This document shows positions 4,529 to 16,673 of a DNA stretch of 23,508 bases, piece after piece. The translations under genes and the position numbers were made by a program. The stretch lies in the IMG/VR virus record IMGVR_UViG_2663763227_000016; one strand, 5' to 3'. The DNA comes from a virus. Taxonomy: Duplodnaviria; Heunggongvirae; Uroviricota; Caudoviricetes. Under the pieces are notes generated by a model. The model was given only the letters and a program-made list of their open reading frames with translations, was not told the origin of the DNA and did no database searches. The first letter of the stretch is position 1. Each line of letters starts with the position of its first letter.

Positions 4529-4586
4529 TTTAAAAAGGGTGGCAGAGCAGTCACGGAGTAGAACTGATGCCACCAAAGACTACACA
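4529..4586 (-). ncRNA. dicF: DicF small regulatory RNA (ftsZ-targeting), processed from the operon transcript
   Basis: The minus strand reads ...GTAGTCTTTGGTGGCATCAGTTCTACTCCGTGACTGCTCTGCCACCCTTTTTAAAG, nearly identical to my recollection of K-12 DicF. It has the long-range stem GGTGGCA/TGCCACC followed by a U-run. Ends are approximate (+/-5 nt). Confidence 0.8.
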
Positions 4587-4911
4587 TGGATATTGTGGCG
4601 GGGCTGTCACTTAAGCGTATGGTCAGCCTGACAACCCGGTGTCCTCAAGGGGAAGGAATAACCCCGCCATACTTACCGCCGCGCCATTTCGCGGATTGCC
4701 ACAACCGGAAGCGCACGGTCGAATTAAATTTAACGACAAAGTACAGAGAGACGAGCTTCTCCGTGTGCTTTCGCGTTATGCTCTGACTTTTCAGAGAAAT
4801 ATCCTTTCAGTAAACTGTCAGTGCCGGATGTTCACCCGTGTCCGGCGCACGCACTCCACTTCACCCGTGGAGAACTCCTTAATTACCAACCTTAGCTTCG
4901 TTGGTTAGCTA

Positions 4912-5130
4912 TTAACGCGGGTATGTAATCATTCTGGCAATGCTTAATGCCGCTGCTTTTTCCAGATTGGTGATATCCTGCTCCAGAGCGGACAGATTTT
5001 CAGCCTGCTTAGCCCTGGCTTCATTGGCCCATTTCAGATCCTGCGCTGCATTAATTTTCTGGCGCATCCACTCATAAAGTTCATCATCGGTATAGTCTGG
5101 CGCGATGATGACGGGTTCTCGTTTCTGCAT
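4912..5130 (-). CDS. YdfC-like hypothetical protein (first clear gene of the dicB-type operon)
   Basis: 72-aa ORF with a strong AGGAG ribosome-binding site 5 nt upstream of the ATG at 5130. Length and position match ydfC of Qin; identity is from position only. Confidence 0.6.
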   Translation of the reverse strand: MQKREPVIIAPDYTDDELYEWMRQKINAAQDLKWANEARAKQAENLSALEQDITNLEKAAALSIARMITYPR

Positions 5131-5201
5131 GTCGGCTCCTTGTGGTTAGCGTTGCCTGCTTTTAACCACGTCAGGCGAGGTGGTATCCTCTGAGGGGTCT
5201 G

Positions 5202-5558
5202 TTACTCGAGAGGAAATTGGTTATGAGTACAATCAAGTTTTCTTGCCCAGAATGTGGTGGCGAAGTCTTTGACACATCCTTTAAGCCGCAGGGCTCTGAC
5301 AGTTTCGCGGGAGCCATCTGCAAAAATTGTGGTCACCTTGTAACTGAAGATGAGTCCTCGCAGTTCGATGACGAAATCGTTGACAATATCTTCGGTGCAC
5401 TCACCAGAGACTTTCTGAAGTAAAGGCGCATACCGCTTAGTTACCGCTCTGATAATTCTTACCTGTCCGGCAATGGCGCTGATGTCAATATAAAGCGCCA
5501 TTGCTGCTTCTTTGCCGATCCCGGGATGCCTTCCATTCTGATGTTTGACTTCGCCCAC
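5202..5558 (-). CDS. Hypothetical protein, possibly the ydfA/ydfB-equivalent of the dicB-type operon (alternative to the plus-strand zinc-ribbon ORF)
   Basis: 118-aa ORF starting at GTG 5558 with GAGGA 7 nt upstream, in the operon orientation. It sits in the codon-aligned antisense frame of a plausible plus-strand gene, which often stays open artefactually. Confidence 0.3.
   Translation of the reverse strand: MGEVKHQNGRHPGIGKEAAMALYIDISAIAGQVRIIRAVTKRYAPLLQKVSGECTEDIVNDFVIELRGLIFSYKVTTIFADGSRETVRALRLKGCVKDFATTFWARKLDCTHNQFPLE
5223..5423 (+). CDS. Putative small zinc-ribbon protein (CPECGG-x18-CKNCG), antisense to the early left operon
   Basis: 66-aa ORF with GAGAGGAA 7 nt upstream of the ATG, paired CxxC motifs, an acidic C-terminus and ordinary E. 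coli codon choice. It conflicts with the in-register minus-strand ORF 5202-5558; only one of the two is likely real. Confidence 0.4.
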   Translation: MSTIKFSCPECGGEVFDTSFKPQGSDSFAGAICKNCGHLVTEDESSQFDDEIVDNIFGALTRDFLK

Positions 5559-5739
5559 TGAGAAATCCTCTGTTTCCCCTTAACGCCGGGGTAGCGGAAC
5601 AAAAACCTGCTGCATAGTTATTAAAGTTGAACCCTGCCGTCATGTTCTTACGCCTCGGGCTGGCTACTTAACCCCTGACCACTGCTTGGTAACTCGAAGT
5701 ATTGCCCTGCATTCTGTGGGGCGGGGTGGGTGGCAGGTA

Positions 5740-5790
5740 TATAATGTACTTTGCGTTCATTGTTGTAAAGTACTTTTAGTACATTTTGTG
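5740..5790. promoter_or_regulatory. Candidate repressor operator / early-left promoter region (ATGTACT and inverted AGTACAT motifs)
   Basis: ATGTACT at 5744-5750 and its reverse complement at 5779-5785 within AAAGTACTTTTAGTACATTT, overlapping a TATATAAT box. The same 7-mer recurs twice in the repressor/cro intergenic region. Confidence 0.4.
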
Positions 5791-5859
5791 TGTAAAAAAA
5801 TGAGATGGGATAAAGTGAAGCACAAACCCGGAGGAAGGCGCTACCGGATTTATGCTGGT

Positions 5860-6279
5860 TTAAGAGGCTTTTTGTTTTTTCTTTCGTGCTAACTCTTCGT
5901 AAATTGCATTGTACTTCTGTTTTTTCTCTTCAAGAGTTTTTAAAAGTTCATCTGTCTCACTGTCAGGGAGCTCGTCCAGAAGGTCAATGATGATTTTTTG
6001 TCTTGGATTTAACTCCTGATAGAAACGTACCTGTCCACTTTCTTCTGTATCCTCTCCCAAAAGATAGGTTGGTGTTGTTCCTATTAGTGTTGCTAATTCC
6101 CTTAATTTCTCCCGGCGAGGAATTGTTTCGCCATTAAACCATTTGCTAACCGCTTTTGGTGTTAATTTCATTCGACGGGCAATTTCTGCCTGCCTTCCAT
6201 GTTGTTCATAACCAGCGTTTTCACAGGCTAGCGCAAGCCTACTGGCGAACTCTTTACGCGCTTTATCTTCATGAACCAT
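5860..6279 (-). CDS. Prophage repressor, XRE-family HTH (DicA/RacR-like, CI analogue)
   Basis: 139-aa ORF with an N-terminal helix-turn-helix (QAEIARRMKLTPKAVSKWFNGETIP) and an acidic/coiled C-terminal domain (LLDELPDSETDELLKTLEEKK). It is divergent from a Cro-like gene across an 80-bp intergenic region containing repeated ATGTACT motifs. Confidence 0.8.
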   Translation of the reverse strand: MVHEDKARKEFASRLALACENAGYEQHGRQAEIARRMKLTPKAVSKWFNGETIPRREKLRELATLIGTTPTYLLGEDTEESGQVRFYQELNPRQKIIIDLLDELPDSETDELLKTLEEKKQKYNAIYEELARKKKQKAS

Positions 6280-10846: not shown

Positions 10847-11083
10847 TTTTATGGATCACCTTTCTGATTGATTTCATATTGGCGAGGTGACGTGAGTTAA
10901 GTAGAATGGCTGCGGGTGCTTGAGGCTATCTGTCTCAGGCATGAACACTGAAAGGCAGATAGAGAAAAGCCCCAGTTAACATTTCGCGTCCTGCAAGACG
11001 CTTAACATTAATCTGAGGCCCAATCTATGTCTCACAAATGTAGGTTAGCCTCTTACGTGCCGAAAGGCAAGGGGAAGCAGGCT

Positions 11084-11239
11084 ATGAAGCAGCAAAAGGC
11101 GATGTTAATCGCCCTGATCGTCATCTGTTTAACCGTCATAGTGACGGCACTGGTAACGAGGAAAGACCTCTGCGAGGTACGACTCCGAACCGGCCAGACG
11201 GAGGTCGCTGTCTTCACAGCTTACGAACCTGAGGAGTAA
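11084..11239 (+). CDS. hokD: Hok/Gef-family type I toxin (HokD/RelF-like)
   Basis: 51-aa ORF MKQQKAMLIALIVICLTVIVTALVTRKDLCEVRLRTGQTEVAVFTAYEPEE, near-identical to Gef/RelF as I recall them. GGGGAAG ribosome-binding site; an in-frame upstream extension (from 11027) resembles a mok-type leader. Confidence 0.85.
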   Translation: MKQQKAMLIALIVICLTVIVTALVTRKDLCEVRLRTGQTEVAVFTAYEPEE

Positions 11240-15449: not shown

Positions 15450-15525
15450 GGCCCTTTAGCTCAGTGGTGAGAGCGAGCGACTCATAATCGCCAGGTCGCT
15501 GGTTCAAATCCAGCAAGGGCCACCA
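15450..15525 (+). tRNA. tRNA with CAU anticodon (Ile2-lysidine type or Met; ileZ-like)
   Basis: Manual cloverleaf: acceptor GGCCCTT/AAGGGCC, D-arm GCTC-AGTGGTGA-GAGC, anticodon loop CTCATAA, T-arm GCTGG-TTCAAAT-CCAGC, encoded CCA. Confidence 0.85.
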
Positions 15526-15532
15526 TCACATA

Positions 15533-15609
15533 CCGCCATTAGCTCATCAGGAAAGAGCGCCAGCTTTCGAAGCTGGTTGCGCGGAGTTCGGGTCCCCGAA
15601 GGCGGTCCA
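15533..15609 (+). tRNA. Possible tRNA-Arg (anticodon UCG), degenerate or pseudo-tRNA
   Basis: Manual fold: D-arm GCTC-ATCAGGAAA-GAGC, perfect anticodon stem CCAGC/GCTGG with loop TTTCGAA, encoded CCA. It has mismatches in the acceptor and T stems, a non-canonical T-loop (TTCGGGT) and starts with C. Confidence 0.45.
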
Positions 15610-15622
15610 TTATCTGTATCCT

Positions 15623-15699
15623 GCGTTGTTAGCTCAGCCGGACAGAGCAATTGCCTTCTAAGCAATCGGTCACTGGTTCGAATCCAGTACAACGCGCCA
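15623..15699 (+). tRNA. tRNA-Arg (anticodon UCU, reads AGA)
   Basis: Canonical cloverleaf: acceptor GCGTTGT/ACAACGC, D-arm GCTC-AGCCGGACA-GAGC, anticodon stem ATTGC/GCAAT with loop CTTCTAA, T-arm ACTGG-TTCGAAT-CCAGT, encoded CCA. Confidence 0.9.
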
Positions 15700-15743: not shown

Positions 15744-15958
15744 CTCACAATTCAGGCGGTTGACTGTTGTCTGGTTTGCGGGGAGTTTGTTAAAAGAAAC
15801 TGGCATGGTGAATCCCCCTGTGCGGAGGGGCAATCAGCGAGTAGGTATATGGGATAATCGCGGATTCAGGTGCTGGTACTGAATTCACCGGGAGGCACCC
15901 GGCACCATGCAATGGCACATAGCGCCACTCTCCAGCCCCTCTCCGGAGGGGCTTTTCT
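15744..15958 (+). repeat. Structured non-coding module, copy A (TTGACT box, two hairpins, terminator-like GCCCCTC-TCCG-GAGGGGC-TTTT)
   Basis: Shares with copy B, at a 468-bp offset, the blocks CTCACAATTCAG, CATGGTGAATCCCCCTG.GCGGAGGGGC, CACCGGGAGGCACCCGGCACCATG and CCCCTCTCCGGAGGGGCTTT. Confidence 0.6.
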
Positions 15959-16147
15959 GTGCCGGATACATCACAGTTTCTGGAACCTTAGGTACTACAG
16001 TATCAGTCAGGGTGCTATATTTTCAGATGTGATGAAAGCCTGTCAGCAGGCAGGGCGTATCGGAAATGACCCAGTAGAGAAAACGTTGACTCAGATACCG
16101 GTGCTGAGTTACCGGGAAACCGGCATCACATGACCGCTATCCTTCCA

Positions 16148-16174
16148 GGCCCATCCGCTCCGGTGGGCCTTTTT
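16148..16174 (+). terminator. Terminator-like hairpin between the two repeat modules
   Basis: GGCCCA-(10-nt loop)-TGGGCC followed by TTTTT. Confidence 0.5.
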
Positions 16175-16211
16175 ACTGCAGAAAACAGGTTCCCCGTTAA
16201 ATGCTATGTTG

Positions 16212-16444
16212 CTCACAATTCAGTAAGTTGACAGTTGCCTGTCAGACTGGGCATTTGTTAAAAAAATTTCGCATGGTGAATCCCCCTGAGCGGAGGGGCG
16301 ACTGGTGACGGTATAATCTCTGATTATCAAAACGAGAATGACGCGGGTTTAGTGGCACCGGGCTGAACTCACCGGGAGGCACCCGGCACCATGTGCATGA
16401 TGATACAGATACGCGGCTTTAGCCCCTCTCCGGAGGGGCTTTCT
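16212..16444 (+). repeat. Structured non-coding module, copy B (TTGACA box, GGTATAAT, hairpins, terminator-like hairpin)
   Basis: Diverged tandem copy of module A. It contains TTGACA (16229-16234) and a consensus-like TATAAT (16309-16314). Confidence 0.6.
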
Positions 16445-16673
16445 TATGGACAAAAAAAGCCCGCGCTGGGAGACGCGGGCGGCAAGGAATAAACAATAAA
16501 ACGTGAAGTAATATTTCAGCTGGCGAATAATACCCCATAGTAATCACTCTGCGCAACTGCGCGGTCTTTTTCGAATTGCGGGCTGTAGTCTCCCTTCTGC
16601 CATTGTCCTGTAACTTCCGGACTTCAGCCTGCTCCTTATCTGACTCACAACATTATCCCGCCCGGGAGGATTC

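Follow-up and report, generated by a model that had tools for sequence, protein, structure and literature searches.

We analysed a locus in IMG/VR virus record IMGVR_UViG_2663763227_000016, whose whole stretch of 23,508 nucleotides (nt) is called the window here and is a lambdoid, Qin/DicB-type prophage of Escherichia coli. At this locus a zinc-ribbon gene on the plus strand and an early-operon gene on the minus strand occupy the same codons, and the substitution patterns of their homologues indicate purifying selection on both reading frames. The initial annotation of this DNA had noticed two codon-aligned antisense open reading frames (ORFs) with acceptable ribosome-binding sites, and both were indeed present; the span 5202–5558 is that of the minus-strand ORF, not of the plus-strand one. 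The overlap comprises the following elements (SD, Shine–Dalgarno sequence; aa, amino acids).

5223–5423, plus strand: zinc-ribbon gene, ATG at 5223, stop codon at 5421–5423, 66 aa
5210–5215, plus strand: SD GAGGAA, 7 nt before the ATG at 5223
5202–5558, minus strand: early-operon gene, GTG at 5558, stop codon at 5202–5204, 118 aa
5566–5571, minus strand: SD AGAGGA before the GTG at 5558, at the end of the conserved operon leader
5424–5501, minus strand: N-terminal 26 codons of the minus core, outside the plus ORF

The plus gene is wholly nested inside the minus ORF, with which it has 201 nt in common. The program-listed plus ORF begins at TTG 5217, upstream of ATG 5223, and the minus ORF has an internal ATG at 5501 that would give a 99-aa protein, the conserved core. 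The codons are exactly aligned, position 1 of the plus codon being position 3 of the minus codon and the second positions coinciding, and because of this register substitution patterns are able to tell the frames apart. The spacing between the plus SD (AGGA or GGAGG) and the ATG is constant in nearly all lineages, and in most of them this SD is downstream of the minus stop codon. On the minus strand, the SD before ATG 5501 is weak in the window and strong in other lineages, with good sites ahead of the minus ATG in divergent lineages (GGAGAGGAAATG, GGAGGCAGGAAAAATG and GAGGTGAAAAATG). The better minus start site in the E. coli clade is GTG 5558, and the leader-end SD serves the first gene in ydfA-type and Rac prophages.

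The plus protein carries the motifs CPEC (C8 and C11) and CKNC (C33 and C36) and has an acidic C-terminal half (MSTIKFSCPECGG...CKNCGH...EDESSQFDDEIVDNIF). The paired CxxC motifs and the acidic tail of the 66-aa product had been recognized before, and the spacing then given as 18 residues is in fact 21 (C11 to C33). Homology searches with both translations, which the initial annotation had proposed, placed the minus protein in PHROG 21318 and the plus protein in NCBIfam family NF047912, the 'ECs_2282 family putative zinc-binding protein' (57.3 bits against a cut-off of 37, E=1e-15, residues 4–59 on profile positions 1–56 of 60), bearing out the view that the latter is a genuine zinc-ribbon protein. 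C8, C11, C33 and C36 are invariant or nearly so among 10 members of NF047912, and all four are retained in the deeply divergent loci L140, L143, L146 and L147. By its sequence the protein is a Cys4 zinc ribbon, with metal binding predicted. It shares with the Lar family (TIGR03655/phrog_6422) the character of a small prophage CxxC...CxxC protein from an early region, but the match (15.7 bits, E=0.014, below the 39.6-bit cut-off; phrog_6422, E=0.008) is a generic zinc-ribbon resemblance only. A PADLOC match to PDC-M14A (E=0.002) was too weak to be accepted, and the zinc ribbon of L122, the N-terminus of an SNF2 helicase, was set aside as generic similarity. A profile search of genome contigs with the plus alignment returned only two spurious zinc-finger matches, and searches of PDB sequences with the plus and minus alignments gave no match.

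The minus protein matched PHROG 21318 over the whole profile (E=1.9e-66, residues 1–99 on positions 1–99 of 99). It had been said to lie where ydfA/ydfB-type genes are expected; the position is confirmed by sister prophages, but homology is not, as neither translation matched YdfA (DUF1391) or YdfB in Pfam or NCBIfam. An AlphaFold2 model of the 99-aa protein, made from a 20-sequence alignment, had a mean predicted local distance difference test score (pLDDT) of 86.8 and a predicted template-modelling score (pTM) of 0.72, and showed a predicted fold of three consecutive helices, a beta-hairpin and a further helix. Structure searches found no convincing fold relative, and the family, with 8 clusters among 1.84 billion representatives, had no relatives outside the cassette that the two genes form. 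We take it for a real, conserved and probably folded protein. In the Enterobacter L096 and L125 group the minus protein has a candidate N-terminal extension of ~32 residues with its own CxxC (CKSCGY / CPHCGF), and C. freundii copies of the gene are annotated as a 174-aa form.

Relatives recovered by searches with each protein came from Escherichia, Citrobacter, Klebsiella and Enterobacter. The DNA of 133 usable loci was reduced to 50–52 distinct core sequences, and 52 distinct homologous sequences were used for the analysis of selection. No gaps were needed in the alignment between a point 30 nt ahead of the plus ATG and one 100 nt past the plus stop codon, and every lineage had both ORFs in a constant register. 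The 66-codon length, start codon, SD and four cysteines of the plus gene were kept in all lineages down to 45% identity. L140 and L143, in which the plus protein is about 45–50% and the minus protein about 38–45% identical, retain both ORFs, and remoter zinc-ribbon homologues of 29–34% identity (63 and 71–77 aa) have the identical codon-aligned arrangement; in two Klebsiella-phage lineages with zinc ribbons 29–34% identical, both ORFs are intact and codon-aligned. The cassette occurs in 936 of 5,426 complete E. coli genomes (about one in six), including O157:H7 strains and PPompW/Stx2a phages. It sits in the leftward operon beside the repressor in prophages of E. coli, C. freundii, K. michiganensis, Enterobacter and the L140 type, and in the rightward operon, directly after cro and before the replication genes, in K. 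variicola, C. amalonaticus and L101. In every context the operon and the minus gene run in one direction and the zinc-ribbon gene in the other. In L089, L090 and L101 (Klebsiella and C. amalonaticus), the site right after cro is the position held by cII in lambda.

Public records were divided over the locus. The minus ORF is annotated in GenBank phage records, and RefSeq usually annotates the plus ORF under the ECs_2282 family name, although in strain UTME-2 it gives the 99-aa minus ORF despite an intact plus ORF. The NCBI pipeline called the plus ORF in the genomes L004 and L139 and the minus ORF in L005, with both ORFs intact in all three. RefSeq holds both proteins (WP_016235604.1 / WP_001092153.1 and WP_012817750.1), and joint annotation of the two was seen in none of the records examined. 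Annotation pipelines bar long antisense overlaps, and therefore public records give one protein and drop the other, with a choice that varies between genomes. We found no published description of the overlap locus in the searchable literature.

The initial annotation had suggested that a comparison of synonymous and nonsynonymous variation in each frame across homologous prophages could settle the coding strand, should only one frame be constrained. The comparison was made with tree-based counts and with a codon model in which the rate is multiplied by omega(plus) and omega(minus) for nonsynonymous change in the respective frame. In the overlap (plus codons 2–66), omega(plus) was 0.26 with a likelihood-ratio test (LRT) statistic of 93.7 (0.23–0.26 and 82–94 over the analyses), and omega(minus) was 0.53 (LRT 16.8, p=4e-5). 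Outside the overlap, the 25 minus codons at 5424–5498 gave an omega(minus) of 0.385 (LRT 27.3, p=2e-7) with a neutral shadow frame on the plus strand (omega 0.78, p=0.23), and the minus ORF is therefore coding where it stands alone. Over 5424–5501 it was also the best of the six frames (z=4.8, ratio of nonsynonymous to synonymous substitution rates (dN/dS) 0.36). A conserved hairpin in this segment, described below, was considered as the cause of its conservation and rejected, since the coding signal persisted in the 15 hairpin-free codons at 5424–5468 (omega(minus) 0.46, p=4e-4; shadow omega 1.06).

Because a single-omega model can drive the omega of a shadow frame below 1, a null of plus-only selection was simulated on the same tree, with BLOSUM-weighted acceptance, four site classes and 120 replicates. 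The null omega(minus) had a median of 0.87 and a 1st percentile of 0.60, with a maximum LRT of 10.9; the real values were 0.536 and 16.4. Furthermore, substitutions that were synonymous in the plus frame produced minus replacements with a mean BLOSUM62 score of 0.74, against 0.115 +/- 0.147 for those possible (a value reached in 0 of 5,000 resamplings). Tested reciprocally, the plus frame gave 0.741 against 0.039, and the shadow frame of the control region was not significant (p=0.08). Collectively, these comparative data indicated that purifying selection acts on both reading frames and is not confined to one. They support the initial annotation, which had considered that a real antisense gene inside an early operon would be noteworthy.

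These results bear directly on the possibility that only the zinc-ribbon gene is real and that the minus ORF is a shadow, lying in the antisense frame most prone to long chance ORFs and called for its length. The plus frame dominates the overlap in six-frame counts (z=7.6) while the naive minus dN/dS of 0.73 is shadow-like, RefSeq mostly annotates the plus ORF, and the missing outside homologues and fold match of the minus family would fit such a reading. We nevertheless consider it unlikely. Minus coding is seen at 5424–5501, where there is no plus ORF (omega 0.39–0.46, p from 2e-7 to 4e-4, shadow neutral); the minus start codon and SD are conserved; the omega(minus) of the overlap lies beyond all 120 null simulations; minus replacements at plus-silent sites are conservative; the predicted minus fold is confident; and the minus ORF runs with the operon wherever the cassette is found.

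The persistence of the open frames argues in the same direction. The minus frame was open in 133 of 133 loci, and also at about 30% identity. When selection on the plus frame only was simulated, it stayed open in all 52 leaves in just 3 of 1,000 runs, and typically about 30 leaves gained a stop codon. Three plus-frame codons read as stops on the opposite strand, TCA, CTA and TTA; except where the minus ORF naturally ends they numbered 0 of 77, compared with 24% A-ending codons in other four-fold families, and the minus frame had the mirror pattern. Both ORFs were also intact and codon-aligned in the deep homologues L140, L143, L146 and L147. With random synonymous codons, the probability of an open antisense frame over 66 codons was about 0.04–0.35 per lineage; multiplied over five deeply separated lineages, it came to 1.4e-4 for an open minus frame given the plus frame and 2e-5 for the reverse, and the co-occurrence is therefore far above chance.

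The converse explanation holds that only the minus early-operon gene is real and that the 'zinc ribbon' is a chance ORF whose cysteine codons mirror conserved Ala/Thr codons. It would account for the two independent nonsense alleles found in the plus frame and none in the minus, for the poor model of the plus protein, for phage records that annotate the minus ORF only, and for a plus gene that runs antisense to the operon without a consensus promoter. Against this, an omega(plus) of 1 was rejected with an LRT of 82–94, and substitutions clustered at third positions of the plus codons (123, versus 69 at first and 28 at second positions). At the cysteine codons the minus residue alternates between Ala and Thr while the cysteine is preserved. 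The 66-codon length, the ATG and the SD are conserved even with the SD outside the minus ORF, the curated hidden Markov model NF047912 is matched, and the plus protein weakly resembles the N-terminus of PHROG 4852 (E=1e-9). With a conserved block upstream of the plus gene and a conserved hairpin favoured on plus-strand RNA in addition, we find this explanation very improbable. These two noncoding elements are located as follows.

5154–5195, plus strand: left boundary block of ~45 nt, conserved across lineages, with unrelated sequence immediately upstream
5469–5513, plus strand: hairpin GGCAATGGCGCT / AGCGCCATTGCT with a 13-nt loop and a T-rich tail (hairpin 5469–5505, tail to 5513)

The boundary block contains an inverted repeat, GCCTG-N13-CAGGC (5154–5176), and, facing the plus gene, a promoter-like arrangement of TTAACC (5162–5167), 16 nt and TGgTATCCT (5181–5189). 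It is kept in Klebsiella phage L146, whose zinc ribbon is 29% identical, and the palindrome of L140 has the compensating variant GCCGGG..CCCGGC. The block resembles an extended −10 promoter combined with an operator-like palindrome and may act as the promoter of the plus gene. In L146, L140, L143, L093 and L125 it is better conserved than either coding sequence. The hairpin lies 45–85 nt past the plus stop codon in all lineages, with a loop of 11–13 nt, and its 3' arm includes the minus ATG at 5501. Paired positions make up 80% of its alignment cells, with compensatory UA/CG and GC/AU pairs among them, and its covariation score was reached by 0 of 500 shuffles. The 10–32 pair is G-U in 9 of 14 sequences, a pairing that exists only in plus-strand RNA. 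We read the hairpin as the probable 3' end, and a candidate terminator, of a plus transcript. Its U-tract is strong in some lineages only (T8 in L098) and weak in the window, where a terminator scan did not list it.

A further explanation is that both ORFs are translated and only the interaction of the RNAs matters, the plus transcript serving as an antisense brake on leaky expression of ydfC–DicF–dicB and its peptide being incidental. Such a transcript would pair with the whole minus coding region and end at the minus start codon, the upstream block is more constant than the coding sequence, and nonsense alleles are tolerated in the plus ORF. However, the strong amino-acid-level purifying selection on the plus frame and the invariant Cys4 would be unexpected for an incidental peptide, and the explanation is in our judgement a quite unlikely one.

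The surrounding region places the overlap at the head of an operon.

4537–4588, minus strand: DicF (Rfam, 61 bits)
4912–5130, minus strand: ydfC, downstream of the minus gene in the early leftward operon
5485–5643, minus strand: short upstream ORF, with a conserved ATG at 5643, beginning MTAGFNF...
5573–5733, minus strand: conserved 5' leader, preceding the minus gene
5769–5741, minus strand: early leftward promoter-like site TTTACA-17-CATTAT, from a promoter scan
5860–6279, minus strand: helix-turn-helix (HTH) repressor gene

Read along the minus strand, the order is HTH repressor, promoter-like site, leader, overlap locus, ydfC and DicF, with dicB and ydfD beyond DicF in sister prophages. 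The overlap locus is the first-gene slot of the repressor-controlled early leftward operon. In Qin-type prophages ydfA/ydfB hold the same slot, between the conserved leader and ydfC–DicF–dicB, but they are not homologous to the genes described here, and the two sets are alternative cassettes at one position. The gap between repressor and cassette is a hot spot for cargo (L005, L139, L097, L140 and L094), with HigB/HigA, RelE/RelB, ParE/PaaA2, YedD or a gene with an HSDR_N domain.

Taken together, the data are best explained by two real, antisense, fully nested genes on one mobile cassette (5154–5558), a reading to which we give a probability of about 0.78 from comparative and predictive evidence. 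Several points weigh against it, the kind of evidence itself being one. In six-frame synonymous and nonsynonymous counts over the overlap, with the plus frame at z=7.6, the minus frame had a z of only 0.4, and its dN/dS of 0.73 is close to the 0.78 of the shadow frame in the control region. We did not accept the count as proof that minus constraint is absent, because a true shadow frame scores the same; the statistic is powerless for that reason, and the joint two-omega model was used in its place. The evidence for minus constraint in the overlap is therefore that of the joint maximum-likelihood model, the simulated null, the BLOSUM62 test and stop avoidance. By halves, omega(minus) was 0.37 in the first half of the overlap (p=2.5e-5) and 0.73, not significant, in the second (p=0.14). 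The alignment behind the minus model is shallow (20 sequences), and a conserved-looking alignment is also expected from antisense translation of a conserved gene.

On the plus side, the protein was poorly modelled (pLDDT 53.5), a frequent outcome for small metal-dependent ribbons when alignments are shallow. Nonsense alleles interrupt the gene in 19 of 133 loci through two independent events. E14* (GAA to TAA) is found in 18 loci, including PPompW/Stx2a-phage records (the L003 and L067–L087 group), and changes F to L in the minus frame; E44* (GAG to TAG), in the single locus L079, is silent there. Some prophages can therefore do without the zinc-ribbon gene. Its promoter was not called by a consensus promoter scan, and the 13-nt loop and U-tract of the hairpin in the window are atypical for an intrinsic terminator.

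If both genes are real, their expression may follow from the anatomy. The minus gene would yield a 99–118-aa alpha/beta protein on derepression, within the early transcript, and a separate promoter would drive convergent transcription of the plus gene, most plausibly in the lysogen while the early operon is repressed. The plus mRNA would be a full-length antisense RNA of the minus coding region, and transcriptional interference together with RNA pairing would make expression of the two proteins mutually antagonistic. We propose this logic, in which the minus gene goes with the early operon, the plus gene is on when the operon is off and the transcripts oppose each other, tentatively and at a little short of even odds, on the strength of gene arrangement and precedent. 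A wider proposal, that the cassette is an ancient, self-contained two-protein switch on both strands in which the zinc ribbon acts in the lysogen and the alpha/beta protein on induction, with mutual silencing of transcripts and a role of both in one process (for example exclusion/defence or control of the early operon), we regard as conceivable and rather doubtful.

The closest precedent is in the Pseudomonas phage Fc02, where Olg1 (7.9 kDa) is transcribed with the repressor in the lysogen from the strand opposite gene 10, the second gene of the early lytic operon after ner, and where Olg1 and gene 10 both make protein when expressed (PMC9936078). In both olg1/gene 10 and the cassette, a small antisense gene lies within an early-operon gene next to the immunity region. 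The proteins are unrelated, however, and Fc02 is Mu-like; its evidence is experimental (plasmid expression and exclusion assays), whereas the prophage cassette is known by comparison alone; and the nesting in the cassette is complete, codon-aligned and conserved across several genera. Antisense genes have also been reported in E. coli O157:H7 and P. aeruginosa (ano and oloz0137/4542/5029; PMC5960689, PMC9927249, PMC8850804), and purifying selection is reported for the P. aeruginosa pairs; we did not find the cassette locus in these papers. These too are coding ORFs embedded antisense, each with its own promoter, SD and terminator. They differ in being young, restricted ORFs inside a widespread 'mother' gene that usually lacks the ORF, whereas the partners in the cassette are equally distributed, always co-occur, stay intact to about 30% identity and move as a unit.

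A gene that opposes the early leftward operon near the immunity region is also known as sieB in prophages of the Rac/lambda/P22 type. In K-12 Rac, sieB lies on the strand opposite kilR, ydaF and racR, and in Enterobacter L095 a SieB gene adjoins the cassette and shares its strand with the zinc-ribbon gene. Lysogens express sieB. Unlike the zinc-ribbon gene, it shares no codons with an opposite-strand gene, its overlap with ydaF in Rac being about 4 nt, and there is no sequence similarity.

The functionality of bacterial antisense proteins has yet to be settled (PMC7457138). Those antisense overlapping genes reported from bacteria that we examined are young and taxonomically restricted, whereas the pair in the cassette is co-distributed and, by the comparative evidence, under reciprocal purifying selection; dual-strand coding of this kind is rare, and the support for it here is unusually good. 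The cassette is a tractable test case for dual coding because stops specific to one frame and silent in the other exist, one of them natural. It also lies directly upstream of DicF/dicB, and a convergent promoter there could affect leaky expression of these cell-division inhibitors. If the cassette were indeed a two-protein switch, its conservation would be deeper than that of any other fully nested antisense gene pair known from bacteria or their phages, and it would be a natural model for two proteins co-evolving on one sequence.

The leader has features of its own. It is near-identical in the window prophage, Qin-type prophages and K-12 Rac, is unannotated and is too conserved for a covariation test; a match was found in 4,061 of 5,426 complete E. 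coli genomes, that of K-12 with its Rac prophage included. Rfam matched no family over 5050–5900. The 52-codon minus-strand ORF at 5485–5643, which the initial annotation had listed as a separate ORF, is present but is not a conserved protein, its length among prophages varying from 18 to 78 codons. The prophages have in common only its first ~18 codons, which fall with the ATG inside the conserved leader, and its length of 18, 20, 51–52, 60 or 78 codons depends on the prophage, through frameshifts and fusions. It is at most a short leader ORF, one that might be coupled to initiation of the minus gene. What is added to the first description is thus that the minus ORF is conserved as well, that the pair moves as one cassette and that the 52-codon ORF is not conserved. 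In some prophages this short ORF is fused in frame to ydfA, and in the window its end falls within the hairpin, 14 nt beyond ATG 5501. Elsewhere in the window (10914–11089, 15450–15696 and 15774–16451), Rfam matched a sok antitoxin RNA (120 bits), three tRNA genes and two STnc100 copies (136 and 165 bits).

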